The position numbers and the translations under genes are program-made. Positions 10,612 through 50,200 of a DNA stretch of 64,000 bases are shown here, piece by piece; position 1 is the first letter of the stretch, and each line of letters begins with the position of its first letter. Origin of the DNA: Acidobacteriota bacterium (lineage in GTDB: Bacteria; Acidobacteriota; UBA6911); contig OY761556.1 in assembly GCA_963664705.1 (NCBI GenBank), positions 5,472,001-5,536,000 on the forward strand, read 5' to 3'. The notes below the pieces were generated by a model that saw nothing but the letters and a program-made list of their open reading frames with translations, did not search any database and was not told where the DNA came from.

Positions 10612-12108
10612 CTAGTTGTTCAGGCCTGTCCCGTAGAGTACGAGCAGAGGATAGCCCTGAGCCATAACGCTGAAGCTCGGATCAGCAATGAAGCTGACGC
10701 CATGGGCATCGCTGAAGTTGGTCTGGAAGAAGACCTGACCCTGGAAGCTTGTCACGCCAGCGGCAGCGCCGAGGTCAGACAGCAGAACTGACCATTCGCC
10801 ACCAGCCGGGATCTGACCAGCTGTATCCAAGCCGAGACCGGGCTTTACAGTTGCGCTGGTCTGGATGACCAGAGGCGTGGTGCCATCAGCAGGAACCAAC
10901 CAAGCTTTGACGGTTCCGGGCTGAGCGGCAGCAAAGAACGGTGTCGCCGGAGTCAAACCAACGGCGGCGATTCTGTTGACGCCAGTCGGGTTGCCAATTG
11001 CGAAACCGGTGTTGAATCCAGGTACCCATGCACTGAACGGGGTATACAGCAGCGTCATTGCCTGTCCAACAGCGAAGGAAATGGCTGTGTTAACCGTTCT
11101 GGCAGCATAGCGAATCGGGCTCTGGCCGGCCTGTGTTCCCACTGCGATAGGCAGAACTGCGGTAGCCGAAAGCGGAGGAGCAAGTGTCGCCGTGATGGCG
11201 GCGGTGCCGGGGGTCAGAGGTACCGGTCCAACAGCCGAGAAGGACATAGGAACGGTGATCGTATCCAGAAGCTGCGGATTCTGGCTGTAAATGTTGATGG
11301 TAAGACCAGTGGCGCTGGCCGAAACCAATCTAGCATCAAAAGAAGGAGTGCTAGTGGTCAGAACCTGGCCGGAAGTGTACCCGGTGGTGACGAACGTGAA
11401 TCCGGACGGCGGAGCCACGGTCAGGGCCAACTGGGTCGGGTTGGTGGCGCCCTTGGTTTCAAAGGCGTTCGCGAACAATTCAGTAATGATCACGTTACCG
11501 CTGGAGGTGCCGCCAGTCTGGGCAACCTGCGGGAAGGTGTAGGAGGTAGCCGTGAAAGCGATTACTTCGGTTACCTGCGCAACAGGAACGAAATTGTTGG
11601 TGATCGTGCCGACTCCAACGCTGTTCGTTACGGTGGCGTTAACAACTGTATTAATGGCTGCGCTGGTCGCGGCCACATTAACACGGACACCCGTGATTCT
11701 CACGAACTGCTGAGAAATCGGGGTGGCCACAGGGGCGCCTGCGAATGACAGCAGGATGGCGCTGCCAGGAGCAGTCGTGCTCACGGTCACGTTACCGGCT
11801 GTACAAGCCACCGGCGTGCCGAAGCTGGTGCTGGTGATCGGATTGTTGCTGTTGCAACCCAGCACGTAGATCTGCATATCGGTGATTGCCGATATCGGAG
11901 CGCTGTACGTGATTGTGATGCTTTCACCTACCGGAATCGTTCCAGTGACGAGAGGTACAAAGTCAACCTCGCCAACAAGCCCTGTCTGGGCATTTGGAGC
12001 GACTGCGATAGTTGCATACGTCGTGGTCATGCTTGTCTGGGCAAAAGAAGCAGCCGAGACGAGCAAGATCAGCCCGAAGGCCAAAGACAGAATTTTCACT
12101 GATTTCAT
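10612..12108 (-). CDS. Secreted Ala/Thr/Ser/Val-rich protein, putative major S-layer protein
   Basis: Sec signal peptide (SFA|Q); about 5% charged residues by hand count; motifs ITGVRVN, GFNTGFAIGNP, FQGQ...NFSDAHG..FIAD; AGGAG SD, long leader and strong terminator. Confidence 0.65.
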   Translation of the reverse strand: MKSVKILSLAFGLILLVSAASFAQTSMTTTYATIAVAPNAQTGLVGEVDFVPLVTGTIPVGESITITYSAPISAITDMQIYVLGCNSNNPITSTSFGTPVACTAGNVTVSTTAPGSAILLSFAGAPVATPISQQFVRITGVRVNVAATSAAINTVVNATVTNSVGVGTITNNFVPVAQVTEVIAFTATSYTFPQVAQTGGTSSGNVIITELFANAFETKGATNPTQLALTVAPPSGFTFVTTGYTSGQVLTTSTPSFDARLVSASATGLTINIYSQNPQLLDTITVPMSFSAVGPVPLTPGTAAITATLAPPLSATAVLPIAVGTQAGQSPIRYAARTVNTAISFAVGQAMTLLYTPFSAWVPGFNTGFAIGNPTGVNRIAAVGLTPATPFFAAAQPGTVKAWLVPADGTTPLVIQTSATVKPGLGLDTAGQIPAGGEWSVLLSDLGAAAGVTSFQGQVFFQTNFSDAHGVSFIADPSFSVMAQGYPLLVLYGTGLNN

Positions 12109-12297
12109 CTATCTCAATCTCCTATAGGATTTGATTGTTGGGTTCTGCATTGTGAAAATTGTGTTGATCGGTTGTTTAGCGCTAACGAATTAACGAAAAT
12201 TCCAGATTCTTCAGATGCGAACCCTGGCAGATTCCTCTCTGCCTACTTCTTATCTGAAGAGTGTCTGGGCTGAAAACCCAGACTTCTGCGCTAAGCA

Positions 12298-12325
12298 ATG
12301 ATAATGATCCATTGGTGATTGTAAA
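12298..12325 (-). promoter_or_regulatory. Candidate sigma70 promoter for the S-layer-like gene
   Basis: TTTACA-16 nt-TATCAT on the minus strand, with an AT-rich tract upstream. Confidence 0.4.
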
Positions 12326-12420
12326 GTCACAAATATTTCATAATATTTTTATCTTTTCTATTTTAGCCAATAACTGAAGAGTTTTCTATTAGATACCGAT
12401 AATGTCCAAAGATGGAAAAT

Positions 12421-12436
12421 TGTGAGCTGGCGCACA
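12421..12436. promoter_or_regulatory. Candidate CRP/FNR-type operator
   Basis: TGTGA-GCTGGC-GCACA, one mismatch from TGTGA-N6-TCACA, in the divergent intergenic region. Confidence 0.3.
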
Positions 12437-12568
12437 GGATAAGGCAATATTTCTCTTTACATTTTCTATAATTTGCCAATAATCTCAGTATCTATCTTGC
12501 AAGGCTAGTCCATTGCCTGAGGTAGTTCATTAGATCAGAACAGTCTTAAACCAAAGCCCGGAAGGATT

Positions 12569-14083
12569 ATGGCGATACGGTTCAGGTTAGCAGATATCAC
12601 CATGAGTAAGAAGCGCCGTCCCCTATGGGCGTTTTGGACCCTGATTGTGCTGATTTCCGTCTGCATCGTAACGTCTCTCGGCCAGACACTCCTGCAGTCA
12701 AGAAAGCATTCGGCTCCCACATCGACCTCGGAGAGAATCAGCCTGGCGTTGGACAATCCGGTTTTCAGCCCTCTGATGCCGAGCCGTTCCCGAATGCCGC
12801 AATTCCCGGCTGGCGCGCATGTGATTTACGGCGGGGATGTGCAGCCTCCGTCTTCTGAAGGCGTATGGTGGGCAGTGGGCGTCACTGCGGATTTAAGCGT
12901 GCCGGAGTCCTCAAGCGCAGCATCCGCTTCATCGGTTGCCGCCAGCGGGCGCAGCCTGCGCAGTTTCTTCCCGGTCCGTCGATCGATCAACTTCAATCGG
13001 CGCTCAAGCGCGGGCGATGCTGTCAATCTGGCAGTAACGGATCTTCTGGAAGCCTTGAAGGAGCGGGAACTCAAGCGTCAAGCAAACAAAGGCGAGGTCA
13101 TTGCCAATCCTTTTGAAGAAGCAGCCTTGAAGGAATCCTCCGAAAAACAGACGGCTTCGACGGAAAGAACGACCAAAGCCGCCGATGTCCAGACAACAAA
13201 AGAGGAAACCAAGCGAAGTCCGGAGGCCAGCGGCGGGACTTCTGTTCAGCGGCGCAATTTTGTTTTGATTGGCAGTTTTGCGGATCAGCTTCTCAGCCTT
13301 ATTCCTGCAAGTTCGGATCAGGGCTTCCTGCATAACGAATCAAGTACCAAAGCCTTTGGATTTGATATTGCCGATGCAAGACAATATTTCGATCTCAATG
13401 TGATACTGCGCAGCCAGGATAGTCAGGAATCTGTTGCCTTCGGCGACCTCAATGGCGATGGAGCGCTTGACGCTGTCGTAACCAACAAGCTGGTGAACCA
13501 GACGCTTGTTTACCTCAATGATGGACAGGGGAATTACACCCTTTGCACGGGCATATTTGGCGGCAACGGCCCCGCGATGGCGGCGATTGGCGAATTCAGC
13601 GAAGATAAATCGCCGGATGTCGCGATCATGCTTCAAGCGGACCGACGGATTGTTGCCGATGGAAAAGGGTTGAGAAAGTTCGTGTTTCTGCCGGCATCCG
13701 ATATTGCTACCGATGGATATTCTTCCATGCTGCCTTATGACTTCGATGGCGACGGGCTGCAGGATCTCCTGTTGGCGGATTACCGGAACTCAAGCACAAC
13801 TCTATACCGGAACGTTGGCCAAGGATTTTTTGCCGCCGCCGATGTTTTTGCACTGCAAACGATTCCGTTGCTACAGGTCAAATCGGATATCAACGGAGAT
13901 GGAATTGAGGATTTGATACTGGCACAGCGCGTGGGAAACCGTGTTTCAATCGTATACCAAAACGGCCTGGATGGCACATTCACCAGCCTGGCCAATACGA
14001 TTTTTGATTCCTCAATCTACTATGCTGTGGGCGATTTCGATCAGGATGGTGTGATCGATATCGCTATTGCCCGCCTTCGATAA
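12569..14083 (+). CDS. FG-GAP/VCBS repeat protein with N-terminal membrane anchor or signal
   Basis: GDLNGDGALD, DFDGDGLQD, DINGDGIED, GDFDQDGVID (DxDxDG repeats); the start may be 12602. Confidence 0.8.
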   Translation: MAIRFRLADITMSKKRRPLWAFWTLIVLISVCIVTSLGQTLLQSRKHSAPTSTSERISLALDNPVFSPLMPSRSRMPQFPAGAHVIYGGDVQPPSSEGVWWAVGVTADLSVPESSSAASASSVAASGRSLRSFFPVRRSINFNRRSSAGDAVNLAVTDLLEALKERELKRQANKGEVIANPFEEAALKESSEKQTASTERTTKAADVQTTKEETKRSPEASGGTSVQRRNFVLIGSFADQLLSLIPASSDQGFLHNESSTKAFGFDIADARQYFDLNVILRSQDSQESVAFGDLNGDGALDAVVTNKLVNQTLVYLNDGQGNYTLCTGIFGGNGPAMAAIGEFSEDKSPDVAIMLQADRRIVADGKGLRKFVFLPASDIATDGYSSMLPYDFDGDGLQDLLLADYRNSSTTLYRNVGQGFFAAADVFALQTIPLLQVKSDINGDGIEDLILAQRVGNRVSIVYQNGLDGTFTSLANTIFDSSIYYAVGDFDQDGVIDIAIARLR

Positions 14084-14139
14084 CCTTCCACTGGCATCAT
14101 TATTTCCGGGGTTGGTACCTCGGGTTTTCGTCAAAAACA

Positions 14140-14206
14140 AAAGCGCCACGAATTGCACAAAGTTCACGAATGCCCCTCGTGGAATTTGCGCAATTCGTGG
14201 CGCTTT
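14140..14206. repeat. REP-like palindrome (GCCACGAATT family); probable bidirectional terminator
   Basis: Perfect 17-bp arms AAAGCGCCACGAATTGC/GCAATTCGTGGCGCTTT between convergent genes. Confidence 0.75.
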
Positions 14207-14249
14207 ATCTTTTCAGAGACTAAAGCCCGTCAAGTCAGGTCCTATGCCG

Positions 14250-16565
14250 CTATTGCAGGATCTGAGGAGTAATTGCACTTAACGAACGGATGTCCTGAGT
14301 TCCAAACAAAGCCACGCTCATCAGCGGGAAATCGCTTCGGATTCGAAAATAGCCGCCGACCTGTCCCGCCGCTGCCGGCACAAGCTGGCTGATCATTCTC
14401 GCAATTTTTGCATGTGCTGGAAGCGAGGACTGATAGGATCCTACCAGGCTTCCGTCTTTTTGATATACATCCAGCGTAAATCCTGTTGGCTGATCATTCG
14501 GATTCTGCAGGGCAATCCCTGTGTAGTACCCGCCGCCTTCCGCTACCTGGGAGTAGATGCAATCGGTTGCAGGCGTGAGAACCAGTGGAAGCGTTGCGGA
14601 AGCGGATCCATCCGATCCTGAGTATCGGATTGCTCCCGCGATAGCCGGACTTATCTGGAAAGGACTAATGCTGGGTCCGACCTCAATACTGAAGGATCCC
14701 GTCACAAGGTTTGATCCAAGGCTGGGAAAGAGACTCGCAAATGAGCGACTGACCTGTGCTCCTGGAGCAATGGATATTCCTACGGGATTTCCCTGCACCG
14801 GAATCTGCTGGCCGGAATCGTCCAAAAGGGTCAATGTGATCGCCGCGGTGATTTGACTGCTGCTGTTTACCAAATCCAGTTCCGTGGAATACAGCCCTCC
14901 CGTTGCAAAATGGGGTACATAGGACTTCTGAATGGTTGATGGGAACTGAGCCGGAAGCACATTCGATTCAAGGGAGTTGCCAAAATTGTTGCGCAGCATG
15001 AATCCTTCGTCGGAGCGCGCTTTGATATACCCGCCGTCAAAGGCACTCAGGTTGATCCCAAAAATATCACGGACATCTTTCAGGAGTATGCCGCCGGCAG
15101 GCAGAGTTTCGCTTTTGCTTGCAAGCACCGTCCCCCCGGCATCAAGCAAGTCGAAATTGACAGTGGCGCTTGAGGCTGAGGGATTATACGTTTCCAGGAG
15201 ATTGTAGTAGCCAAGCCCTTCCCGAAAGAGAACCGGCATGAGCAAATTAAGCGAACTCGTAATTTCTCCGTTGCTGCCGTCAAGTCTCGGTCCCGCAACG
15301 TCACCGAGTATATAGAAGCCCTTGATGTTTGAATGAGCGCTAACCCGGATTGTGCCGGCGGAAGAAGCGTTAAAGGAAGCCCCGAATATTTCCAACGCCA
15401 TTTTTGCATACTGACCGTTTGGGGGCAGCATGACATTCACGGGATTGGTAATATCTTTTCCTTCAAGGATTTTACCGTCGCTGTCATAGGCAGTCAGAGT
15501 CGCCATAACAAGAAAATCCTCGGGGTTTGTCAGGGCGATGCCCGTGTTTGTCGCTTCGTGCGCAGCCAGAAATGGGAAGACAAGTATCGTCGAACCGGTA
15601 GAGAGCTCGGATGTGTCAGGGACAAGCCGCTCGACATAACGTGGGACTTTTGTGGTATCTGTTCCGATTGGCCCTATCGCCGCCTGAAACTGAATTACGC
15701 CCTGGGCGGTTTCCGGTATCTGCGTCAAGTTGACGTTGAATCGAAAAGTCTCAATTGCCGCCGAACTGCCCTGCGCGGCGATAAACTGGTAGACCACATC
15801 AGTGGAGCCATCGGCTCGAGGGATCGTTTCGGGTTCGCCCGAAAGCGTTATAAACGTTGCACCCGTATTGGCCACACCCATCGCATCAAATGTGATCTGG
15901 GCCCCACTGGGAAGTGGCGGATATGGAGTGATGCGGATCTGGGTCGGTGTTGTCTGTCCGCCGATCCCCACAGAGTCCGAAAAGGCATTTGGGTACTGCT
16001 CGGAAACATCGACATAACTGCTGCTATTGGCTTCACCATTGATCCAAGAGAGCAATGGACTGCCTTGTTGGACCGAGATCGGTCCCTTGACCGCGTCGAT
16101 CACCACCGGATTTCCCTGCCATGCATCAATCAGATTTCCGCCGACACTTGCGTTCGAGATAACCACTTTTACAGAGTCTACGTCGTTCCCCGCAATCGCG
16201 ACCCGAACTCCCGAAATGAGTATCATATCTCCCGTGGTGCCGTCGGCCGGTACGTCAACGATAAGCGAATTGCCGGAGATAATTGGAGTTGATTCAACGC
16301 CGGCCAGCCCCCCCGTTCCACTTACCTCGATTTCTGAAGCGTCATTGTTAACAATCGGGCAGGAATAGGTGAGGATGAAAGGAACCGCTACAGTTGTTCC
16401 GGTAAGCACAGTGAATGAAATGCTACCCGCCTGTTCCGCACGTCCTATGTCGGCGGCAGTCACCGGCCCGCTGGCCACAACGAAAGAAGCCTGGGCGAAT
16501 ATTGACGGGCATAATAGGAAGAGCGAAACCAGCACTGTGAGAATATGAACCGGTTTGACCTGCAT
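14250..16565 (-). CDS. Secreted S-layer-like paralog with repeated C-terminal beta-rich modules
   Basis: Signal peptide (IFA|Q); N-half colinear with 10612-12108; repeated modules NTGIALTNP, STELDLVN, YTGIALQNP. Confidence 0.65.
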   Translation of the reverse strand: MQVKPVHILTVLVSLFLLCPSIFAQASFVVASGPVTAADIGRAEQAGSISFTVLTGTTVAVPFILTYSCPIVNNDASEIEVSGTGGLAGVESTPIISGNSLIVDVPADGTTGDMILISGVRVAIAGNDVDSVKVVISNASVGGNLIDAWQGNPVVIDAVKGPISVQQGSPLLSWINGEANSSSYVDVSEQYPNAFSDSVGIGGQTTPTQIRITPYPPLPSGAQITFDAMGVANTGATFITLSGEPETIPRADGSTDVVYQFIAAQGSSAAIETFRFNVNLTQIPETAQGVIQFQAAIGPIGTDTTKVPRYVERLVPDTSELSTGSTILVFPFLAAHEATNTGIALTNPEDFLVMATLTAYDSDGKILEGKDITNPVNVMLPPNGQYAKMALEIFGASFNASSAGTIRVSAHSNIKGFYILGDVAGPRLDGSNGEITSSLNLLMPVLFREGLGYYNLLETYNPSASSATVNFDLLDAGGTVLASKSETLPAGGILLKDVRDIFGINLSAFDGGYIKARSDEGFMLRNNFGNSLESNVLPAQFPSTIQKSYVPHFATGGLYSTELDLVNSSSQITAAITLTLLDDSGQQIPVQGNPVGISIAPGAQVSRSFASLFPSLGSNLVTGSFSIEVGPSISPFQISPAIAGAIRYSGSDGSASATLPLVLTPATDCIYSQVAEGGGYYTGIALQNPNDQPTGFTLDVYQKDGSLVGSYQSSLPAHAKIARMISQLVPAAAGQVGGYFRIRSDFPLMSVALFGTQDIRSLSAITPQILQ

Positions 16566-16877
16566 ACGTTATACCTCCGCAAGATAGAACATCAGTAGGC
16601 TCCATACAGCGCGCCCTTGGTGTTTCCAAATACCCCCACCATAAAGCTTATAATATGGAAAACCTAATGACCAGATGGCCTAATATATTAATTATTAAAG
16701 AGTTACCAGCGTCCAGACATCTCCGCAAGCCTGATGCCGGTCCGGAAAGAATCCGCCTGCCAGCAATCCGCCGGCTTGCCGCTTTTCCGGGCGCGCCCGA
16801 AAGCGGGGACAAACGGCAATTGCTGTTCACGCAGGTATTTCCGGAGACCCCGGTAGACATTTCGGCAGAATCAGAGG

Positions 16878-19838
16878 TTATTCGTAGAATAAATCGGTGT
16901 GGGAGAGATTCTTGTCCATGGGTGCTTTGTATTGATCCATTCGCGCGAGTGCCATAATTTTATCGCTTGGAGTATATTCCGGGACGATCTCTTTCATTTT
17001 GTCGACCAGGTCGGGGAGGTTTTTGGAATCGACCATGGAACCTAAATCCTTCAACCACTCTCTCACTTTTTCCGGGCTGACATAGCCACCGTCTAAAACT
17101 CTGATTTTCTCGTGAGAGGTCGGTTTAATGCCCTCACCTTCCAATCGGACTTCCTCAAACAACTTCTCGCCTGGACGGAGCCCGGTATAGACGATTGGGA
17201 TATCGATTTCGGGATCAAGCCCTGAAAGACGTATTAGCGCACGCGCCAGTTCAACAATCTTCACCGGTTCACCCATCTCCAATACGAAAATTTCGCCACC
17301 ATCGCCCATTGTTGAAGCCTGAAGGACCAGTTGCACGGCTTCCGGAATGGTCATGAAATATCGTTGGACCTCTGGATGGGTGACCGTGATCGGTTTTCGG
17401 GCTGCAATCTGTTGTTCAAAGATAGGCACAACACTGCCGCGGCTTCCAAGGACATTCCCGAATCGTACCGATACAAAGCGCGTGGAATGATGTTGCAGGC
17501 TCAGGATCAGCAATTCCGCAATACGTTTTGTCGCCCCCATGATGTTGGTGGGATTGACCGCCTTGTCGGAGGAGATCATCACAAAATCCTCAACCTTGAA
17601 TTGCTTTGAGACCAATGCCACATTGCGTGTTCCAAAGACATTGTTCCTGATTGCCTGAAAGCAGTTCAGCTCCATCATGGGTACGTGCTTATAAGCCGCG
17701 GCATGAAAGACCGAGTTAGGCCGATGGCTGCCAAAGGTTTCCTGCAATTGGTGCATGTCCAGAATGTCGCCGATCACCGAAATGCAGTTCACCGCGGGAT
17801 AGTTTTCTCTAAGCTCGTTCCCGATCTGGAAAAGGTCGCTTTCCGATCGTTCAAACAAAACGATTTTGGCCGGATCGAACGCGGCTATCTGACGGCACAA
17901 TTCGGATCCGATCGATCCGGCAGCGCCCGTGATCAGGACCACTTTGCCCTGCAGCTTGGTCCGGATATTCGCCAAATCCAGCTTTACAGGCTTTCGACCC
18001 AGAAGATCTTCGACTCGAACGTTGCGCAGGTTGCCTACCGATAACGCTCCTTTGATAATGTCGCCTATTGCGGGAAGCGTTTTGAACTCCACCTTGCACT
18101 CACGGCATTTATCAATGATGCGCTGGATCTGCCGGCCGGATGCCGACGGAATCGCTATAAAAATGTGGCCGACATCATTTCCTTTTATGAGGTCGGGGAG
18201 TGCATCAACATTTCCGAGGACTTTGACCCCCTGAATCTTTATTCCTTTCTTGCTCGGATCGTCGTCCACAAACCCCACGGCGTTGTAATCCAACTGTTCA
18301 TTGTCCCGCAGTTCGCGGGCAATAACGCTTCCTGCCCGTCCCGCGCCGATAATGAGAGTGTTTGTCTGGGTCAGGTAAATCCGGGCGCTTTCATAATAGG
18401 CCCTGACCGCAAAGCGAGCGCCGCCCACCATCAGAATGGTCAGGATTGGATCGATGACGAAAAGGGATCGGGGATAATTGCTTAAGCCATAGGTGAGGCC
18501 AATGCCTGCATAGATGAGTGGCGCGGAAACCGCCGCCGCCTTAATGATATCCAACAGGTCGCTCATCCCGACGTACCGCCACCAGCCGCTGAACAAACGA
18601 AAAATGGAAAATACGATCAGCTTGATCAGCAGGACAAGAAGCAGTGTGCTGAAAAAAACCGCGCGATATGGGTCCGGGAGGCTGATGTCCAGCCTCAACA
18701 TGAAGCTCAAGTAATAGCTGAGCGAAATCAGGCATAAGTGAGAAAAAACAATCACCAGCTTGCGATAGCGCAAAGCATAAGCCCGAACGTGCGGTTTCAG
18801 CGATGCTGCAGCGTTTCGTTCGCACCCGGAGACGAAGAGCCAGAGGCCAAGAGCCAGAACCGGGAGAACAACAACGCCGTCAATGGCCAATCCGATTTGT
18901 CCCTGTGACCATGAGAATGCCAGCGCGGCGCCGGCGAGCGAAAGCGAACCATAAAGAAGAGCAACGGAACCGGGTCCCTGCCCCGCGATCATCAGGCGCT
19001 GATACAGGTGAGAGCGGTGCGCGAGAAACACATTTTCGTGATTGATAAGCCTGCGAAAAAAAGTGAGGACGGTATCGAAAACAAAAGGCCAGACAAGCAT
19101 CAGGCCGACAAAAAAGGCTCCAGGCATTCCGGGGTTCAGCCTGGTACAAATCAGCGGGAAAACCGCGAAACTGTACCCCAGAAAGGCGCTTCCCACATCG
19201 CCCATGAAGATTCTTGCCGGCGTCCAATTGTGCCGCAGGAACCCCATACTGCTGGCGACAATTAGAATTCCGGGAACAGAAAGCATGGTTTGGCCGCTGA
19301 TGATTCCAACGTAGCACCAACCTGCGCCGGCGATAACTGCTTGCAGCCCCGCAATACCGTCGCTGCCATCCATGAAGTTGTAGGCGTTGGTGAGCCCCAC
19401 AATCCAGAGGAAAGTAAGAAAAAGGCCGACGTATCCCAAATCCACCGGAGTGTGAAAAGGTAAGGAGATCTTCGTCCAATACCCACATCCCATGATGGCT
19501 ATCGCGGCTGCAATGCTGTGCATCAGGAAGCGGATCCAACTGGGAAGAGGATGCAGATCATCCAGCCAACTGACAATCGCTATCAGCAACGCGCCAATGA
19601 CATAATATGGAAATCCCGGCCAGAGTTGAGATGGCTGCAATACCCTCCAGCCGATGCCGCCAAGAAGCGTGATGAGAACGATCGCCAGACCTCCCCCGCG
19701 CGGCGTCGGTCGGACGTGTGAACTGCGTTCATTCGGAATGTCCAGGATTTGACGCTTTCGAGCCCAGTCGCCGTAGACTCGCACCAAGAAATAGGAAATT
19801 AGGAATGCCATGAATGCAATGGCAAACAATAAGTGCAT
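16878..19838 (-). CDS. Fusion of a WecA/WbpL-like polyprenyl-phosphate HexNAc-1-P transferase and a CapD/WbpM/PglF-like UDP-GlcNAc 4,6-dehydratase
   Basis: N-terminal DIPNERSSH..PTPRGGG, NAYNFMDGSDG, IFMGDVGS, AHRSHLYQ; C-terminal TGAAGSIGSEL, HAAAYKHVP, SSDKAVNPTNIMGATKR, RFGNVLGSRGSV, GLRPGEKL; one open frame. Confidence 0.9.
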   Translation of the reverse strand: MHLLFAIAFMAFLISYFLVRVYGDWARKRQILDIPNERSSHVRPTPRGGGLAIVLITLLGGIGWRVLQPSQLWPGFPYYVIGALLIAIVSWLDDLHPLPSWIRFLMHSIAAAIAIMGCGYWTKISLPFHTPVDLGYVGLFLTFLWIVGLTNAYNFMDGSDGIAGLQAVIAGAGWCYVGIISGQTMLSVPGILIVASSMGFLRHNWTPARIFMGDVGSAFLGYSFAVFPLICTRLNPGMPGAFFVGLMLVWPFVFDTVLTFFRRLINHENVFLAHRSHLYQRLMIAGQGPGSVALLYGSLSLAGAALAFSWSQGQIGLAIDGVVVLPVLALGLWLFVSGCERNAAASLKPHVRAYALRYRKLVIVFSHLCLISLSYYLSFMLRLDISLPDPYRAVFFSTLLLVLLIKLIVFSIFRLFSGWWRYVGMSDLLDIIKAAAVSAPLIYAGIGLTYGLSNYPRSLFVIDPILTILMVGGARFAVRAYYESARIYLTQTNTLIIGAGRAGSVIARELRDNEQLDYNAVGFVDDDPSKKGIKIQGVKVLGNVDALPDLIKGNDVGHIFIAIPSASGRQIQRIIDKCRECKVEFKTLPAIGDIIKGALSVGNLRNVRVEDLLGRKPVKLDLANIRTKLQGKVVLITGAAGSIGSELCRQIAAFDPAKIVLFERSESDLFQIGNELRENYPAVNCISVIGDILDMHQLQETFGSHRPNSVFHAAAYKHVPMMELNCFQAIRNNVFGTRNVALVSKQFKVEDFVMISSDKAVNPTNIMGATKRIAELLILSLQHHSTRFVSVRFGNVLGSRGSVVPIFEQQIAARKPITVTHPEVQRYFMTIPEAVQLVLQASTMGDGGEIFVLEMGEPVKIVELARALIRLSGLDPEIDIPIVYTGLRPGEKLFEEVRLEGEGIKPTSHEKIRVLDGGYVSPEKVREWLKDLGSMVDSKNLPDLVDKMKEIVPEYTPSDKIMALARMDQYKAPMDKNLSHTDLFYE

Positions 19839-19876
19839 CGGAACACCAATCGGTTTTCGGTTGAAAAGACGCGCGA

Positions 19877-36159: not shown

Positions 36160-36172
36160 GTTGTTTCAGCCA

Positions 36173-39894: not shown

Positions 39895-39952
39895 CCTGAC
39901 CTTCTTCGCTCCCGCACCAATGTTTCCGCGGGCGCTGCATCAAAAAACTGAA

Positions 39953-40567: not shown

Positions 40568-40570
40568 GGG

Positions 40571-43047: not shown

Positions 43048-43831
43048 TGCCTCTTCCTCTGATCCCCAAGGGATTGTTCAACTGATTGATCCCAAACGGA
43101 TTAATAAAAGTAGTCCGCCAATCATAAGGTTCCGCTTTGAGAGGCACGACCATATGACGGTTCAAATTGTTTCCACGCGGGTCACGCGATATCATGGTAA
43201 ACGATACCGCCAGCGGCAACCGGCCGATCTTCTGGCCGTCCCATTCCTGTACCCATTGCGATCCGTTATTGTTGTCTCCCGGATCGAAATACTCCAAAAG
43301 GCAACTGGAGAGATTCTCAAAAATCGGAACAGCGCGGGAACCGGATACGGATATTCCCTCTTCAGGCGTATCTCCCAGATACCGGGCTTCCCTTTCCACC
43401 AGTGCATACTCGCCGTTGTGGTCCTGGTCGACGTCATACGACACCATCGTGAGCCCCGGGCTTACCTGGAACTGTAGGGAGTTCAAACTGATAAACTGAA
43501 CGCCGTCCTTTTTCCCGCTAAATAGCAGTGCCCCGGTTCCGCCCGGTTGCTGGGAATCCATCTCAAGCAGCGCATAGGCTGAAGCCATCTGTTTTCTGAC
43601 CAGGTTCAGAATGCTTCGGTGCCGCTGATTGGCATCCATGAATTCCGTACCTCTTGACCAGGACCGGATGCTGACTCGAAACACCGCCCACAAGGCGACC
43701 GCCATGATGGCCACAAGCGTTACCGCCACCAGCATCTCGAGCAGCGTGAATCCGGCCATTCCCCGCGAGTCGGATCTGTGGATCCGCCCGGTTCGAATGA
43801 CAGATTCCTGGGTTTTGGCTGCACTGATCAT
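43034..43831 (-). CDS. gspJ: T2SS minor pseudopilin GspJ
   Basis: G|FTLLEMLVA type IV signal; WVQEWDG...LPLAV. Confidence 0.8.
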   Translation of the reverse strand: MISAAKTQESVIRTGRIHRSDSRGMAGFTLLEMLVAVTLVAIMAVALWAVFRVSIRSWSRGTEFMDANQRHRSILNLVRKQMASAYALLEMDSQQPGGTGALLFSGKKDGVQFISLNSLQFQVSPGLTMVSYDVDQDHNGEYALVEREARYLGDTPEEGISVSGSRAVPIFENLSSCLLEYFDPGDNNNGSQWVQEWDGQKIGRLPLAVSFTMISRDPRGNNLNRHMVVPLKAEPYDWRTTFINPFGINQLNNPLGIRGRGNEVR

Positions 43832-44328
43832 TACCGCGTCCCCATTTTCTGATCCTGAGGCGTTGTTTTTACCAGCTTCAGTGTCTGCAACCGATAATCC
43901 GATCCCCTGGAATCCGGGCTGAACATCTCCACGGTGTAGCAGAGCAGTTTCACCGGAATGTTCAGTTGAGAATTCCTGTCGGGAAGCCGTTCGGAATTCG
44001 GGAGCGAGTAGTTGTCCACGCGTACCGTCCAGCGCGTGCCATCCTCGAAATCTCCGTTAAAGCTCGTAGGCTCCAGAATGGCATCATCAAGAAGCGCCAA
44101 TTCCATCACTGCTTCCGCATGTTCTACTGTGCGTGTTCTTAACTGAACCTTTCGTATGTTGCCCAACGATCCTGAAATCAAAGACAGCGTCAATGCCGCC
44201 CCAAGGGCCAGCACCGTGAGCGCAACCAGTACTTCCAGCAAAGTGAATCCGGAATCCGCCTTCCTGCGACTGCTCACCGCAGCGGCCTTGAAAAAATGCC
44301 CCGGATGAAGTTTGCGAAGCGGATTCAC
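43831..44328 (-). CDS. gspI: T2SS minor pseudopilin GspI
   Basis: G|FTLLEVLVAL; operon order. Confidence 0.78.
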   Translation of the reverse strand: MNPLRKLHPGHFFKAAAVSSRRKADSGFTLLEVLVALTVLALGAALTLSLISGSLGNIRKVQLRTRTVEHAEAVMELALLDDAILEPTSFNGDFEDGTRWTVRVDNYSLPNSERLPDRNSQLNIPVKLLCYTVEMFSPDSRGSDYRLQTLKLVKTTPQDQKMGTR

Positions 44329-44807
44329 TGCAAATTCTCCCCCGACCCCTGCTCGATGCGGGCGCCGCCCGTAATCGGGTCGGTAAAAACTCTGAAAAAA
44401 GATCCGGTATCGGACTTCAGCAGCACCTCCGCATCGTCCGAACTCCCGTTGGGCAGAAACCGAACCGTCATCGGGTCTTCCCTTACTTCATTTCCTGCCA
44501 GAGTCATGCGCTGGATCTTCACATCCCTGGGCAGGATGTAGCTGCGATTTCCCTCGCCGAAATTGTCCGTGAGCACAAATTGCTGTTTGTCCTTATAAAC
44601 TGCAACGCACATACCGGACTGCTCGGTGACCGCCTTTTCCCGGGCATATCGAAATGTATTCAGAACGTCCCGCGCCGAGGTTCTCAGGTGCAGGGACGAC
44701 GTCCCACGCGAAAGGGATGGATAGGCCAACCCTACCGCCAGTGAGATGACGAGCACCACCACGATCAGCTCTATGAGTGTGAACCCCTGGTCGCTATGTC
44801 GATGCAT
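44325..44807 (-). CDS. gspH: T2SS minor pseudopilin GspH
   Basis: G|FTLIEL, AREKAV, RFLPNGSS, DPITG. Confidence 0.8.
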   Translation of the reverse strand: MHRHSDQGFTLIELIVVVLVISLAVGLAYPSLSRGTSSLHLRTSARDVLNTFRYAREKAVTEQSGMCVAVYKDKQQFVLTDNFGEGNRSYILPRDVKIQRMTLAGNEVREDPMTVRFLPNGSSDDAEVLLKSDTGSFFRVFTDPITGGARIEQGSGENLQ

Positions 44808-44813
44808 AATCCC

Positions 44814-45296
44814 CTATTTCCAGCTGCAGATGTCGTCGTCGTTGCCTTCCGTGCCATCCGCACCGGCGGAATACAGATCGAAGTCTCCATGCATTCCGGG
44901 ACACCGGTATAAAAACGGCTTCCCCCAACTATCCTTCGGAACCTCTTTGGAAAGGTAAGGGCCTTTCCAGGTATCGGCATTGGCCGGGTTCCGAACAAGC
45001 GAATCCAGGCCCTCCGCTGTCGTCGGGAATCGCCCCACATCGAAGGAATACATTTGCAGCGCACCTTCGAGTTCCTTTATCTGGATTTTTGTGATCTGGT
45101 CTTTTCCCTTGGCAAGCTTATCGTAGACCCTGGGGGCGACAACCGCTGCAAGGAGGCCCAGGATTACCAGGACAACAATGAGTTCGATCAGCGTAAATCC
45201 CTTTTCCGACCTGCGTTCGTCATTTGCGAACATATCTTTCCTCCCGGCCTCATCTTTTGCCCGGTTTTTCATTGCTCGAAAAATGTCGTCGTTCAT
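44814..45296 (-). CDS. gspG: T2SS major pseudopilin GspG
   Basis: G|FTLIELIVVLVILGLL, GRFPTTAEGL, WKGPYL, PKDSWG, DLYSAGADG; start codon uncertain. Confidence 0.93.
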   Translation of the reverse strand: MNDDIFRAMKNRAKDEAGRKDMFANDERRSEKGFTLIELIVVLVILGLLAAVVAPRVYDKLAKGKDQITKIQIKELEGALQMYSFDVGRFPTTAEGLDSLVRNPANADTWKGPYLSKEVPKDSWGKPFLYRCPGMHGDFDLYSAGADGTEGNDDDICSWK

Positions 45297-45306
45297 TCGT
45301 CATTCA

Positions 45307-46527
45307 TCACAGTGGTATGTCATTGATGCTGAATATGGCCATTAACATGGACACGACAATGGTTCCAATCACGACTCCCATTACCAGGATGAGAGCCGGT
45401 TCAAAAAACGAGATCAGGTTCTTGATGCTGTTGCGCACCTCAACGTCGTACACCTCGGCAACCTGAATAAGCATGGCGTCGAGTTTTCCGGATTCCTCTC
45501 CCACTTCGATCAGGTGCATGGCCAGGGGCGGAAACACGCCGCTCTGTTTCATTGGCTGCGTTATCCCTTCCCCTTTTTTTATTCCGTTCCGTATAGGCTC
45601 GATGGTGTTCGCGATGCTCTGATTTGCGATGATCTCGCGCACGATGGTCATCGATTGAAGAAGCGGGACGCCGCCATGCAATAGTGTCCCCAGCGAACGG
45701 GAAAAGCGTGCGACCTCGACCTTTTGAAGAACAGTGCCGACGAGTGGAACGCGCAGCATCCATCGATCCCATTTCAGCCTGCCTTCGCTGCTTTCGCGGA
45801 AGCGCTTGAAATAAATGAATGCCAGGCCGATGGCCAGGATGGCGGCCCACCAATAGTAGGTAAGAAAAGTGCTGAGACCTTTGAGGAAAGCCATGGGCAG
45901 CGGGAGCGGCACTCCCATGTCCTGGAAAATCGATGTGAATTTCGGGACAACGAAAAGCGTAAGAATGATGACGCTTGCCAAGCCGACGACCGAAAGCAGG
46001 ATCGGATAAACCATGGCTCCGACGATATACGATCTCAGGTTTTCGCTGGTTTCAAGGTAAGTGGCGAGCCGGGTCAGGATTTCTTCCAGCACTCCGCCCG
46101 CTTCTCCCGCCTTGACCATGCTTATGTACACTTTGGGGAAAACCGCCGGATATTTTGCCAGAGCTTCGGAGAAGGACTTGCCCCCCTTCACTTCCTTCAG
46201 CACATCCTGGATGACTTCCGACATCGCGGGGCTTTCTGCAAGCTGCCCCAGAACTGCCAGGCTGCGATCCAGCGGGAATCCGGCACGCACAAGGGTGTGA
46301 AGCTCCTGCGTAAAGATCAAAAGATCCTTGCGGCGCACCTTTTTCCGTTTCCAGGGCCACTCGATCTCGCGCCTGAAGATCGCTTGCTTGGTTTGGGACC
46401 CGATATTGATGGGAAGCAGCCCCATTTCCTGCAGCTTTAAGGACACAGTTCCGTTATCCGAGGCTTCCATGGTCCCCTCGACGATCTTGCCTTCAAAGGT
46501 GCTTGCCTTATAGCTATAGGACGGCAT
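45307..46527 (-). CDS. gspF: T2SS inner membrane platform protein GspF
   Basis: AGEAGG.L, YP, LPLP, VGEESGKL, EP; start set at 46527 (MPSYSYKA). Confidence 0.92.
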   Translation of the reverse strand: MPSYSYKASTFEGKIVEGTMEASDNGTVSLKLQEMGLLPINIGSQTKQAIFRREIEWPWKRKKVRRKDLLIFTQELHTLVRAGFPLDRSLAVLGQLAESPAMSEVIQDVLKEVKGGKSFSEALAKYPAVFPKVYISMVKAGEAGGVLEEILTRLATYLETSENLRSYIVGAMVYPILLSVVGLASVIILTLFVVPKFTSIFQDMGVPLPLPMAFLKGLSTFLTYYWWAAILAIGLAFIYFKRFRESSEGRLKWDRWMLRVPLVGTVLQKVEVARFSRSLGTLLHGGVPLLQSMTIVREIIANQSIANTIEPIRNGIKKGEGITQPMKQSGVFPPLAMHLIEVGEESGKLDAMLIQVAEVYDVEVRNSIKNLISFFEPALILVMGVVIGTIVVSMLMAIFSINDIPL

Positions 46528-46638
46528 CGTATGGTCCCACAATTTCGGATTGCGGAGTACAATTTGCGGAATGGAATGCCTTTTCTTCAGTCCACAATTC
46601 GAAATTCGAAATCCGTGATTCGTAAATAGAATTCATAA

Positions 46639-48363
46639 CTAGGTTTCCTGCGTAACCCGGAGGACTTCCGCGATCGTCGTTATCCCCTGCCGGACCTTCA
46701 ACCACCCGTCATCCCGCAGAGAACGCATACCGTTCTCATTGGCTTTTTTCCGAATCTGGTTGGAGTCTGCTTTTCCTACCGTAAGCTTGCGAATGTCATC
46801 GTTAATCACCATCAGTTCATAGATGCCAAGCCGGCCGGTGAAACCGGTGTTGCCGCATTTTTCGCAGCCGGCTCCTTCATAAAAACGAGCCGGGCCTTCT
46901 TTGCGGTCGCCGCGCCGGAATCCGATTTCGTCCAACATTTCCGGTACAGGGAATACCTCGGTTTTGCAGGCCGGGCAAATCACCCGGACAAGGCGCTGCG
47001 CAAGAACGCCCAAAAGCGAGGATGCGATCAGATAGTCCTGGGCTCCCATATCGATCAGACGCGTGATGGCGCTCGGAGCATCGTTGGTGTGCAGCGTGGA
47101 AAAAACAAGATGTCCGGTCAAGGCTGCGCGGATGGCGATCTCCGCCGTTTCCAGGTCGCGGATTTCGCCGACCATGATCACGTCCGGATCCTGCCTGACG
47201 ATGTGTCTAAGACCGGCCGCAAAGGTCAACCCGATCTGCGGATTGACGTGGATCTGGTTGACGCCGTCGATCTGGTATTCGATCGGGTCTTCAATCGTGA
47301 TGATCTTTTTGTCCGGCAGGTTAATGGTACTCAATCCACTGTACAGCGTCGTGGTTTTGCCGCTTCCGGTGGGGCCCGTAACCATGAAAATACCGTGCGG
47401 ACGCCGTATCAGAGATTCGAATTCGCGCAGAGAATCTTCGGGGAATCCCAGGTTGCGGATGTCGTAGAGGCTCGTGTTGCTCTTGTCCAGGATACGCATG
47501 ACCACGCTTTCCCCGTATAGCGTCGGCAGCGTCGAAACACGCAAGTCGATATCTTTCCCGAGTACCTTCAACTTAATTCGTCCATCCTGCGGCAGCCGCC
47601 GCTCCGCAATGTTCAGTTTGGACATGATTTTGACGCGGCTGATCAGCGCGGCCTTCAGCTTTTTGGGCGGGGACTCGACGTCATGCAGGAGGCCGTCAAT
47701 CCGGTACCGCACCTTCAGATCCTTTTCAAAAGGCTCGATGTGAATGTCACTGGCGCGGCTTTCAATTGCTTTGGAGATGAGAAGGTTTACCAGGCGGATG
47801 ACAGGGGCTTCCGATGCAAGATCCTTGAGCTGCTCGATATCCTCGATCTCATCCAGGCTCTCGATGTTGCCATCATCGATTCCTTCAATAATCCTACCCA
47901 GCGTGCTGGCCGCTGAGCCGTAGAATTTCTCCAGCATATCCATGATTTCGCTTTCGGCCCCGAGCAGCGGCCGCAGCTGATATCCGGTCGCCTGCCGGAC
48001 CGAGTCCAGCGTGGCGCTGTCCAGCGGATCCGTCATGGCAAGCGTTAACACGCTGTTTTCAAGAGAGACGGGGATAAACTTGCACTGCTTCATAAACCTG
48101 AACGTGAGGACATTTTCAAGCACAGGGCCGGGCGGATAATCCGTAACGGATAAAGCCGGGATATTGAGATGCTCGGAGACAACCGCGAGACAATCCTTCT
48201 CGGAAACATATCCGAGATCTACCAGAAGCTTGCCCAGTTTTTCCCGCGATTCAGCCTGAAGGTTGAGCGCTGTGCGCAGTTCCTCCTCGTCGATAAGGCC
48301 GCGTTCGAGGAAGACCTGCCCGATAAGCTTTTTTGATTTGAGGTTCTCGACTTTAATACTCAA
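46639..48363 (-). CDS. gspE: T2SS ATPase GspE
   Basis: ASDIHIEP, ERRLPQDG, Walker A GPTGSGKTT, EDPIE, RQDPDVIMVGEIRD, Cys4 motif; TTG start. Confidence 0.95.
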   Translation of the reverse strand: MSIKVENLKSKKLIGQVFLERGLIDEEELRTALNLQAESREKLGKLLVDLGYVSEKDCLAVVSEHLNIPALSVTDYPPGPVLENVLTFRFMKQCKFIPVSLENSVLTLAMTDPLDSATLDSVRQATGYQLRPLLGAESEIMDMLEKFYGSAASTLGRIIEGIDDGNIESLDEIEDIEQLKDLASEAPVIRLVNLLISKAIESRASDIHIEPFEKDLKVRYRIDGLLHDVESPPKKLKAALISRVKIMSKLNIAERRLPQDGRIKLKVLGKDIDLRVSTLPTLYGESVVMRILDKSNTSLYDIRNLGFPEDSLREFESLIRRPHGIFMVTGPTGSGKTTTLYSGLSTINLPDKKIITIEDPIEYQIDGVNQIHVNPQIGLTFAAGLRHIVRQDPDVIMVGEIRDLETAEIAIRAALTGHLVFSTLHTNDAPSAITRLIDMGAQDYLIASSLLGVLAQRLVRVICPACKTEVFPVPEMLDEIGFRRGDRKEGPARFYEGAGCEKCGNTGFTGRLGIYELMVINDDIRKLTVGKADSNQIRKKANENGMRSLRDDGWLKVRQGITTIAEVLRVTQET

Positions 48364-48970
48364 GGATTTTCACCCTCTGTCTGAATTCTTTATACCGGTC
48401 TGTTTTGCGCCCAAACTCATCAAGGTCTTTTTTGGAGGCGGTCATCACAATTGTCTTGTTTGCATTCGGTTCATCCGGGAAAACCCGGTCCTCAAAGAAA
48501 CCGACAATGGTGATGCTGTCGCTCTTCCGAAGCTGACGGAAACTATCCCCTTTTTCCATCAGTACCCGGATCAACTTTTCTTTGAGTTCTTCAATGCGCC
48601 TTTTTTTGGCTTCCGGCCCGGCGTCCACCTTGGAACGGATCTGGCCGAACGGAGTGTTGACCACCGCTCGGTGAATATTAATCATAAAAGACACACTTAT
48701 TCCATAGTCCGGCAAATACGCACCCTTTGCCTTTTGAACCAGTGCAAACGGGCTGCTGCTGAAACTGCTGCTAATTACATCATTTACCACATCTTCGAAC
48801 TTGAGAATATCCCGTTGTGTTTGTGCATAATCGAGTCTTGTGTCGTCGGCGGATTCCTGGCCCGACCCCGCAGGCATCGCTGCCAGGGAAAACGTGAGAA
48901 TCCAGACGACAATTAGAACAACAGCATAGCCTTTAACTGCAGGCAGTTCTATGGCATTCGGGTCTTCCAT
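48353..48970 (-). CDS. Exported hypothetical protein
   Basis: TM/signal segment then GAYLPDYGISVSF; stop overlaps the gspE start; start set at ATG 48970. Confidence 0.65.
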   Translation of the reverse strand: MEDPNAIELPAVKGYAVVLIVVWILTFSLAAMPAGSGQESADDTRLDYAQTQRDILKFEDVVNDVISSSFSSSPFALVQKAKGAYLPDYGISVSFMINIHRAVVNTPFGQIRSKVDAGPEAKKRRIEELKEKLIRVLMEKGDSFRQLRKSDSITIVGFFEDRVFPDEPNANKTIVMTASKKDLDEFGRKTDRYKEFRQRVKILEY

Positions 48971-48993
48971 ATGCCTCTGTGCGCCTCTAGCGA

Positions 48994-49536
48994 TCAATTC
49001 CGGTTTCCACTGCGAGCGGCACTGACGCGTGCCGTACGCGAATACAACCAATGATTCTGCTCCACGGTATCCAGCATTTTCTGGATCATCAGATAATTTT
49101 GCTCGTTGGTACGCATTTCGCTATCGTCCAGGGCCCGCTTCACCAGGTCCCGGACTTCACTCTTGCTGTAAGAGACGTCATCCGGCGCCCGTCGGAAGAG
49201 ACTCGTACGAAACGAAAAACCATCCTTCGTCCAGGTTAGTTCGGTATTGGCGAGCGCCAGGAAACAGAGAAGAACCATGGCAGCAATCGCGCCATAACGC
49301 GCAAGCTTCCAATAGTTTATCCGCTTTTCCTTCAATTCCTGCCTCGCCATGGATACGCTTCGAAGCGGGGATTCATCCTTCCATCCCTGGAGATACTTCT
49401 GCGTTTGCTTCAAATCATCGAGTTCCTGCCGACATTCCGCACAGGTCTGGAGATGGGCTTTCACCTCGGGACTTGCCTCCGAGGGATCGTCATACAACAG
49501 ATCCGCAAAGCTCTCCCGAATCTCATCGCAATGCAT
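48994..49536 (-). CDS. zf-HC2 anti-sigma factor
   Basis: MHC...HLQTCAEC plus TM; follows the ECF sigma gene. Confidence 0.85.
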   Translation of the reverse strand: MHCDEIRESFADLLYDDPSEASPEVKAHLQTCAECRQELDDLKQTQKYLQGWKDESPLRSVSMARQELKEKRINYWKLARYGAIAAMVLLCFLALANTELTWTKDGFSFRTSLFRRAPDDVSYSKSEVRDLVKRALDDSEMRTNEQNYLMIQKMLDTVEQNHWLYSRTARVSAARSGNRN

Positions 49537-49633
49537 GGCTGAACTCCCGCAAAGATCCATATCCCAAATTTCAGATTTCAAATGAGTTCTGAAATTTAAA
49601 ATCAAGAATTTGAAATTGGATATCTATTAGCAC

Positions 49634-50200
49634 TTATCGTCCTTTTATTCCTAAACGTCTCAGATTCCGCTGCACATCTTTGAGTCCGTGGTAGAGGCGG
49701 GATTTTGCGGTGGAGAGCGGGCATTCCATTACATCCGCCAGTTCTTCCAGGCTCAATCCCATGTATTCCTTCAACACAATCGCGGACCGGTGATCGTCAC
49801 TGAGTCCTGACAGCGCTTTCTGAATAATGTCAATGGTTTCCAGTCTGTCCCCGCGATCTTCGGCAGCAAGCCCGAAGACAACGGTGCTCTCGGCATCTCC
49901 TTTGTCCTGTACCGGGCTGCTCAGCGATAGATGGGACACTCTGGATCTCCTGCGTGCCCGGCAATGATTCAGCGCAATCTGGTATAGCCAGGTGGAAAAA
50001 CTGCCGGGATCCCGCAACCCCCTGAGGGACCTGAAAACCGAGAGAAACGTTTCCTGCACGATATCCTGGGCATCTTCTCGATTGCCAACCATGCGCCAGG
50101 CGAGGTTATATATCTTCCGCTCCCAGCAATGGACAATCCTGCTGAAGGCCTCTTCTTCTCCCGCGAGAAATCTTCGGACCGCCTCCTCGGTTTCTATCAT
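49634..50200 (-). CDS. ECF RNA polymerase sigma factor
   Basis: GEEEAF, DAQDIVQETF, FSTWLYQIALN, TAKSRLYHG. Confidence 0.92.
   Translation of the reverse strand: MIETEEAVRRFLAGEEEAFSRIVHCWERKIYNLAWRMVGNREDAQDIVQETFLSVFRSLRGLRDPGSFSTWLYQIALNHCRARRRSRVSHLSLSSPVQDKGDAESTVVFGLAAEDRGDRLETIDIIQKALSGLSDDHRSAIVLKEYMGLSLEELADVMECPLSTAKSRLYHGLKDVQRNLRRLGIKGR

Follow-up and report, generated by a model that had tools for sequence, protein, structure and literature searches.

The window analysed here is a 64,000-nucleotide stretch of the 6.9-Mb genome, one contig, of an Acidobacteriota bacterium (genome G000, G000:C1:5472001–5536000; G-numbers label genomes and L-numbers label loci within the collection that was compared), and it carries, beside a set of type II secretion system (T2SS) genes, the gene for a 498-aa protein, SLP498, that is a candidate surface-layer (S-layer) subunit. 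A first-pass annotation had proposed that positions 10612–50200 form an assembly line for an S-layer glycoprotein, with subunits, a glycan operon, a transferase and a T2SS of its own. When the 48 open reading frames (ORFs) of the window were scanned with Pfam and NCBIfam, every gene it had named was present at its coordinates, and its claim that 10612–50200 is free of housekeeping genes also held; these lie in the flanks, as mqnC/ku and guaB/secA. Window positions 1000–20999 are covered with zero differences by a single contig of a DNA run, which may be the source sample, and neither an Rfam family nor a tRNA was found within the window. The principal features are as follows; D1, D2 and D3 are the three domains of SLP498, and SLP771 is its 771-aa paralogue.

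10564–10589, minus strand: intrinsic terminator directly 3' of SLP498, with a 10-bp stem (9 GC pairs) and a T run
10612–12108, minus strand: SLP498, candidate major S-layer protein; Sec-type signal of ~23 aa, then D1, D2 and D3
12109–12325, minus strand: promoter-like site, ~185-nt structured 5' leader and strong ribosome-binding site of the SLP498 gene
12569–14083, plus strand: FG-GAP repeat protein with one N-terminal hydrophobic segment, divergent from the SLP498 gene
14250–16565, minus strand: SLP771; D1–D2 as in SLP498, then four tandem ASRAH-like repeats
16878–19838, minus strand: fused polyprenyl-phosphate N-acetylhexosamine-1-phosphate transferase (PF00953) and UDP-GlcNAc 4,6-dehydratase (PF02719), from Pfam
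19877–32052, minus strand: rest of the glycan operon; epimerase/reductase, family 4 glycosyltransferase (GT4), heparinase II/III-like, GT4, bi-domain dehydrogenase, heparinase II/III-like, AsnB-type amidotransferase
32570–35755, plus strand: putative WaaL-fold membrane glycosyltransferase, 1061 aa, with C-terminal tetratricopeptide repeats (TPRs); AlphaFold2 (AF2) model, match to WaaL 7tpj, conserved R240/R376/H442
36173–48363, minus strand: gspE-F-G-H-I-J-K-L-M-C-D; TIGR02533, TIGR01710, NF037980, NF040576 and TIGR02517 above cut-off, NF053729 at 52.9 bits vs 38

SLP498, its family and the secretion system beside it

SLP498 gave no Pfam or NCBIfam match in the ORF scans. The mature protein is laid out as two immunoglobulin (Ig)/cohesin-like domains, D1 (residues 1–157) and D2 (158–327), followed by the ASRAH-like D3 (328–470), and its AF2 model, built from a 148-row alignment, shows three domains that are nearly all beta (predicted local distance difference test score, pLDDT, 94; predicted template modelling score 0.86). 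D1 and D2 resemble generic Ig, cohesin, pilin and adhesin domains at Z 7–10, and D3 resembles Thermotoga TM1070 (1nc7; Z 11.2, root-mean-square deviation 2.5, 104 residues aligned) and ASRT (2II7; Z 8.3); N350 is invariant in all 148 alignment rows. A Foldseek search with the whole model returned generic Ig-rich chains at TM ≤0.3, the archaeal S-layer structure 7ptp among them, and was not used, and the SLP profile found nothing credible among the sequences of the PDB (one match, E 0.011).

Four copies of D3 modelled together scored 0.87, against 0.02 for the best control, with head-to-tail faces, at least 78% agreement of contacts between runs and pLDDT of at least 83. From these models D3 is predicted to form a four-membered ring. 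Of 30 solved homo-pairs 20 reach the mark that it passed, and of 23 single chains 1 does; these rates are only rough for four copies and a custom alignment, and the pass may reflect the TM1070 and ASRT tetramers that are already solved. Across the family mean identity is 39% in D3 and 25% in D1 and in D2, and the interface columns of D3 are more conserved than D3 overall (0.61 vs 0.50). Serine and threonine together make up 22.7% of mature SLP498, the 99.7th percentile among 2792 proteins.

A sigma-70-like site (12325–12298) precedes the SLP498 gene, its leader folds at z −4.6, and both the promoter end and the ribosome-binding end of that leader are conserved in three relatives (G002, G014 and G302); judged from sequence, the leader, ribosome-binding site and terminator fit high expression of the gene. 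Contigs from a relative in RNA run X1 cover the SLP gene in parts, together with 111 nt of the leader; this run was found by way of the SLP gene, so that missing cover of the neighbours is uninformative, and RNA contigs cannot rank genes.

SLP498 belongs to a large, variable, Pfam-less family of the Acidobacteriota, with 986 representatives at 50% identity found by a nine-row profile (an estimate of phylum-wide range from a 16-row profile, with matches in 16 of 201 genomes, all of the same class as G000, was dropped as it missed known Bryobacterales members). From the best 80 of 112 stretches in the genome collection we obtained 77 SLP-family loci, and gspD lies within 10 kb of the SLP-family gene in 41 of them, or in 37 of the 54 that extend 6 kb or more upstream; in 22 loci gspD is followed at once by the SLP gene, and in 15 the SLP gene comes second or third among the called genes after gspD. 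The candidate S-layer gene is, then, adjacent to the gsp cluster across genomes. The gspD-linked loci are mostly from Bryobacterales, where a TIGR03437 (Soli_cterm) protein usually comes next, and within the class of G000 the SLP profile matches 78 of 116 genomes, many of them through D3-only proteins of ~200 aa near gspD.

Other genes recur at these loci. The Soli_cterm protein, of ~1150 aa (e.g., L148:10710–14159), is the commonest SLP neighbour (46 of 77 loci) and may tie the expansion of the Solibacter C-terminal domain to T2SS export. A secreted Ig-like protein of the DUF1573/HYDIN type, possibly a chaperone, is another frequent neighbour (L040:17396–18568, L085:5134–6210) and was not found in G000. 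At loci with a D3-only gene linked to gspD, a secreted Pfam-less protein of 607–643 aa follows a GT2 cluster (L022:4429–6285, L019 of G040, and G245) and is possibly the main surface protein of those families; neither it nor the Soli_cterm protein gave a convincing match to the SLP or repeat profiles. Two or more SLP genes stand in tandem or nearby in loci of G165, G286 and G288 (L168–L170, L181–L184), suggesting variant subunits, and in a prophage-like region of G024 (L045:11661–13223) SLP D2–D3 is fused to an unrelated N-terminal domain, with no signal peptide.

The gsp genes were borne out in both set and order, although the match to GspC is weak (E 7e-8). GspC through GspM, GspD with its N0 domain, GspE and a prepilin peptidase are all present; gspO lies outside the locus, and one prepilin peptidase is encoded at 1.22 Mb of G000. 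GspE (46639–48363) carries an N-terminal MshEN cyclic di-GMP-binding motif above cut-off, suggesting control of export by cyclic di-GMP. G000 gave no GspG, GspK or GspC-type genes besides those of the window, and its other secretin/ATPase clusters look pilus-like, by labels taken from homology. Of 15 genus relatives without an SLP match that were searched, 14 have gspD, and in G003 the gsp operon is complete although the SLP block is gone. As the sole canonical T2SS of its genome, and one that is kept without the SLP gene, this system is not dedicated to the S-layer, contrary to the first-pass annotation; 26 other G000 proteins, moreover, share the surface domain of SLP498.

The second S-layer-like gene falls in the same family: BLAST relates SLP771 to SLP498 weakly (27% over 396 columns, E 7e-6), but the family profile matches it at E 2e-47. 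Its four repeats lie at residues 322–441, 435–542, 540–661 and 663–767, of which the fourth matches DUF5719 weakly (E 4.8e-7), and its gene directly follows gspD in G014, G001 and G002; from its sequence SLP771 is likely to be a minor lattice subunit. The FG-GAP assignment also stood (PF13517, E 1.9e-21); this gene adjoins the SLP gene in most loci of the family, and no full-length match to its product was found in the five SLP-negative relatives examined. An iterated profile of the repeat found 74 ASRAH-like copies in 27 G000 proteins, two copies in 12 of them, three in 7, four in 7, and one in SLP498 only. In the 26 further proteins (e.g., C1:710532, 921135, 1077622, 1356910 and 3710244), most with signal-like N-termini, the 2–4 copies are N- or C-terminal, and the one at C1:1356910–1360326 combines the repeats with an SLP D1–D2 at 44% identity.

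Glycan genes and candidate transferases

The glycan operon is present as described, eight genes in the Pfam scan over 16878–32052, in the order asnB, heparinase II/III-like, bi-domain dehydrogenase, GT4, heparinase II/III-like, GT4, epimerase and PF00953–PF02719 fusion. The fusion, which we take to resemble WbpL–WbpM, has no full-length fused match in the 40 relatives searched; in G293 its halves are two adjacent genes in the same order, 54% and 64% identical. The Pfam and NCBIfam scans found no flippase, polymerase or ABC transporter in the interval. A second cluster in G000 (C1:563553–577725) repeats the dehydrogenase, GT4, heparinase-like and AsnB genes as paralogues and adds apparent ABC-transporter genes, labelled from sequence.

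A conserved 40-kb line that includes the operon is not supported. SLP771 follows gspD immediately in G014, G001 and G002, and in G301 only a broken Wzy_C/TPR gene stands between the two, so the 19-kb block 16878–35755 is not at this position in those genomes; in G293 the orthologous operon is on contigs apart from the 34-kb contig with the SLP and T2SS genes, which carries another cluster. Of 50 genomes of the family, 7 match the heparinase-like gene, and only G002 (75%) and G293 (56%) do so closely. The GC content of the insert (0.536) equals that of the T2SS genes (0.538), so composition gives no sign of recent transfer. Of the synteny and co-occurrence that the assembly line implied, the link between the SLP gene and gspD holds across genomes and that to the glycan operon does not.

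The 1061-aa membrane protein had been called a Wzy_C-TPR transferase, and its match to the Wzy_C profile is weak (E 0.011; 36.8 bits summed vs a cut-off of 31.7), but the model of its residues 1–593 (pLDDT 91) resembles WaaL (7tpj; Z 19.9, root-mean-square deviation 5.4, 355 residues aligned; Foldseek E 2e-5), with RodA/FtsW next best at Z 11.5. R240, R376 and H442 are conserved in 97 homologues, in the Arg/Arg/His order of the WaaL/PglL triad given in PMC3643930, and on sequence would be equivalent to E. coli R215/R288/H338. From the helix count (~21) and charge of the model its TPRs would be periplasmic. Searches of PDB sequences gave TPR matches only, or none, and PglL_A (PF15864) and Wzy_C_2 (PF11846) gave no match at E ≤0.01 or 0.05; PilO is likewise reported to lack PglL motifs (PMC3643930), so this enzyme may still have protein acceptors.

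Co-occurrence was scored in genus relatives at least 85% complete, with the best 15 candidates scored per genome. Of the 8 relatives with the SLP gene, 6 have a full-length member of the transferase family and 5 a GT-C glycosyltransferase of the PMT_2 type with ≥60% identity; of the 17 without the SLP gene, none has either (Fisher p 1.6e-4 and 1.1e-3, respectively). Both p values overstate the association. In a quickly made uvrB tree with 41 rows, from which G015 and G019 are missing for want of a uvrB match, SLP presence needs 6 changes, at least 3 of them forced, and its co-absence with the transferases is therefore more than one event. These counts leave glycosylation, or a glycan anchor, likely. 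The transferase family lies inside the SLP locus in G000, G002 and G302 and with a different GT4/sugar-transferase cluster in G001, G012 and G024 and at a G000 paralogue at 2.51 Mb, and a second Wzy_C/TPR family (Pfam E 9.6e-14) follows gspD or stands beside the FG-GAP gene in G006, G097, G231, G292, G294, G296 and G301.

The PMT_2-type enzyme belongs to an alternative cluster, with polyprenyl-phosphate GT2 enzymes, methyltransferases and an epimerase, which is also the one on the SLP/T2SS contig of G293. Of the 21 genomes from which loci were taken, 13 have this cluster next to their SLP-family gene. Its G000 orthologues, most of them 51–81% identical and the 688-aa one 31–35%, lie at 3.295–3.305 Mb beside tufB, 2.2 Mb from the window; in several other genera the whole SLP locus lies beside tufB, and in other families GT2 clusters occupy the same place. 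Weaker PMT_2 matches (39–40%) occur in G006, G301 and the SLP-negative G019. The window itself offers a second candidate protein glycosyltransferase in the first of its remaining features:

3736–5505, minus strand: multi-pass membrane protein with TPRs, GT-C/PMT-like by homology
8702–10372, minus strand: second extracytoplasmic function (ECF) sigma factor, anti-sigma factor and small TPR-like gene; a conserved SLP-gene neighbour that travels with the locus
35774–36036, no strand: multicopy intergenic repeat element between the transferase gene and gspD, with 117 genome blastn hits for the interval
48353–50200, minus strand: ECF sigma factor, zinc anti-sigma factor and conserved hypothetical protein upstream of gspE, in an order kept across the class

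The N-terminal part of the 3736–5505 protein has no Pfam match, and homologues of the protein occur in 10 of the 77 SLP loci; those that adjoin the SLP gene in G231, at 23–24% identity, match PMT_2. This gene and the ECF/anti-sigma operon at 8702–10372 lie outside the range of the first-pass annotation and are additions to it. The repeat at 35774–36036 is one of two multicopy palindromic intergenic elements, the other being at 14134–14206 (7 blastn hits; both counts are for the whole interval).

Proposed export, lattice and source of the glycan

The explanation we favour, at a probability of roughly 0.68, is that SLP498 is an S-layer subunit exported by a shared T2SS and is likely to depend on a glycan. 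SLP498 would pass from the cytoplasm into the periplasm by Sec and out of it through the neighbouring T2SS, which would be common to the S-layer and other surface proteins, and build a square-lattice S-layer as its main subunit. The D3 ring may be the four-fold node of the lattice, with the variable Ig-like arms D1–D2 providing the remaining contacts; it would take four chains of SLP498 to close the ring but a single chain of SLP771, so that SLP771 might fill single nodes as a minor subunit. SLP498 would be glycosylated, or held by a glycan, from one of several candidate pathways. The 15-kb operon would be a late arrival that builds an undecaprenyl-linked amino-sugar glycan, and the WaaL-fold/TPR enzyme may transfer a lipid-linked glycan in the periplasm, more probably onto protein than onto lipid A. 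Taken by its parts, we consider the S-layer role and shared export of SLP498 likely on sequence, models and analogy and some dependence of the layer on a glycan, on the protein or as an anchor, quite probable, and we think it rather unlikely that the glycan of the window operon sits on SLP498.

Several observations weigh against this explanation. The contact modelled is the four-fold one of D3 only, and a lattice requires a second; codon adaptation of the SLP498 gene is modest (87th percentile of 3934 genes). What lies by gspD in several families of the class is a gene for a D3-only protein of ~200 aa, and an unrelated secreted protein of 600 aa is encoded nearby. ASRAH dyad or tetrad proteins are present in 25 of 29 genus relatives, most of which lack SLP498, so that the repeat reaches beyond the S-layer carriers, and the idea that tandem-repeat proteins occur only alongside the S-layer was rejected on this count. 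Of the 55 wider loci that reach 5 kb or more downstream, only 11 hold genes labelled as glycosylation; G014, an SLP carrier, lacks both tested transferases, and G019 and G290 have a PMT_2 homologue and no SLP match. G000 has lpxC and kdtA and six other Wzy_C genes, so lipid A may be the acceptor, with the glycan as an S-layer anchor. Finally, the assemblies of most relatives are in fragments, and related genomes do not count as independent cases.

Four other explanations were weighed. The one that survives best, although still tentative, is that SLP498 is modified by the GT-C cluster at 3.295–3.305 Mb or by the 3736–5505 protein, the window operon being an unrelated polysaccharide cassette in a variable spot. 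The frequent position of that cluster beside SLP-family genes, its orthologues next to tufB, the site of the whole locus in several genera, and the way its PMT_2 gene tracks the SLP gene within the genus all argue for it; its distance from the window in G000 and its absence from G014 argue the other way, and PMT_2-type GT-C enzymes may also modify lipids or polysaccharides.

It is doubtful that the operon makes an O-polysaccharide which the WaaL-fold enzyme ligates to lipid A core, the S-layer binding this lipopolysaccharide (LPS) non-covalently through its ASRAH domains. The six other Wzy_C genes are available for LPS, the TPR domain, which would be periplasmic, suggests a protein partner, and one named homologue of the transferase (P0231) is from the Anaerolineae, to our knowledge a group without LPS. 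The closest solved fold of the transferase is nonetheless WaaL, with no PglL_A or Wzy_C_2 match, G000 makes LPS, with lpxC and kdtA present, and the co-loss of SLP and transferase genes is accounted for equally well. ASRAH domains have also been proposed as sugar binders (PMC2739507), all Aeromonas S-layer strains are reported to have homogeneous O-chains, and diderm S-layers to associate with LPS (PMC3658858, PMC13721041).

SLP498 might instead be a tetrameric surface lectin or adhesin that leaves by a general T2SS and forms no crystalline layer. D1–D2 do resemble adhesin and pilin Ig domains (Z 8–10), 26 other G000 proteins share the repeat and D3-only versions exist in other families; the single copy of the domain, the stand-alone transcript features, the high divergence and the fixed position after gspD match known T2SS-linked S-layer genes, and we regard this possibility as unlikely. 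Most improbable is the line as first drawn, in which the operon 16878–32052 makes an undecaprenyl-diphosphate glycan, the WaaL-fold/TPR enzyme loads it onto S-layer subunits and the T2SS serves them exclusively: operon and transferase do sit between gspD and the SLP genes, the SLP locus of G002 (SLP 52% identical) includes the transferase (55%) and that genome also keeps an operon fragment at 75–85%, G302 has the transferase beside its FG-GAP and SLP genes, SLP498 is rich in Ser/Thr and O-oligosaccharyltransferase genes are often near their target (PMC3643930), but the operon is not at this position in G001, G002, G014 or G301 and is off the SLP/T2SS contig in G293, it lacks a flippase, the transferase family keeps other company in G001, G012 and G024, and the T2SS persists without the SLP gene. 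What lasts of the proposal that glycosylated subunits are exported by the T2SS is a candidate S-layer gene with an adjacent T2SS and recurring glycosylation genes; the dedicated T2SS and the conserved assembly line are not supported.

Acidobacteriota are abundant in soil and sediment, and the question of their S-layers becomes directly testable in cultured Bryobacterales, since the analysis names a candidate S-layer family and candidate glycosyltransferases, suggests a likely way of export, predicts a symmetry node, and points to a widespread family of WaaL-fold/TPR enzymes. If the favoured explanation is true, the uncharacterised secreted ASRAH/DUF5719 repeats would gain a role. It is a speculative and rather doubtful extension that many Acidobacteriota live under an undescribed square-lattice S-layer with an ASRAH-ring node, that the repeats, two to four to a chain on dozens of secreted proteins, are a modular tag plugging cargo into the nodes or addressing it to the T2SS, and that exchangeable cassettes O-glycosylate the layer and include, in the TPR-bearing WaaL-fold transferase, a new class of O-oligosaccharyltransferase.

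Comparison with known systems

The literature we found, with most subscription papers outside the search, describes no characterised acidobacterial S-layer locus, as the first-pass annotation had supposed, nor the SLP498 family; a 2024 survey of S-layers is reported to call their existence in Acidobacteriota 'ambiguous' (preprint 10.1101/2024.05.28.596244), and PMC5900883 mentions an S-layer only in a figure legend. The order of gsp genes followed by an S-layer gene has been reported for slr4, npdA and vapA (PMC7821379, PMC11094555, PMC10765051, PMC3658858, preprint 2025.06.27.661923).

Slr4 of Pseudoalteromonas tunicata (PMC7821379) is like SLP498 in its Sec signal, its reported size of ~50–57 kDa and its gene directly downstream of the gsp operon. 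Slr4 is reported to form a square lattice, whereas for SLP498 only a four-fold node is predicted; the two come from different phyla, the SLP498 locus has a tandem-tetrad paralogue, and the word 'glycosyl' is absent from the main text on Slr4. The Slr4 family profile (PF19526) has no match in G000 at E ≤1, nor in 53 SLP-family members at E ≤0.1; Atlas lists Slr4-bearing clusters as look-alikes (0.90 and 0.88), a lead only, from one source, and remote homology of SLP498 to Slr4 is possible. NpdA of Paracidovorax/Delftia (PMC10765051) is described as a 52-kDa 'hypothetical' protein with a signal peptide, encoded downstream of a 12-gene gsp cluster in many genera; unlike SLP498 it is proteobacterial, P. 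citrulli has two gsp clusters, and the likeness is one of gene arrangement. Aeromonas VapA/AhsA share signal peptide cleavage, T2SS-type export, a tetragonal lattice and a suspected O-polysaccharide link (PMC3658858, PMC10765051) with what is proposed here, but the Aeromonas T2SS is considered dedicated, whereas that of G000 is the sole canonical one and is kept without the S-layer gene; VapA and SLP498 are likened by export and gene arrangement, not by sequence.

D3 finds its closest parallel in the ASRAH superfamily, for which PMC2739507 reports tetramers of TM1070 and ASRT, dyads or tetrads in other members, and a nearly invariant Asn ending strand 2, and proposes, as a prediction, sugar binding. 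Although PF07100 gave no match to D3, it shares the eight-stranded beta-sandwich of TM1070, an invariant Asn (N350), single, dyad and tetrad copies, and a tetramer that is so far predicted; the intra-chain repeats number 2–4 in the 26 further proteins. The ASRAH proteins described in the available part of that paper are cytoplasmic solo domains, amidase fusions and actinobacterial lipoproteins, with no S-layer or acidobacterial family among them. The transferase likewise has the fold of WaaL/PglL (PF04932) and their Arg-Arg-His in the same order and differs from them in its probable ~21 membrane helices, its C-terminal TPR array and its lack of a PglL_A or Wzy_C_2 match. SLP498 itself has the features that PMC13721041 gives for S-layer proteins as a class, being predicted to be secreted, within the 40–200 kDa range, modular and beta-rich with Ig-like domains, and poorly conserved in sequence.

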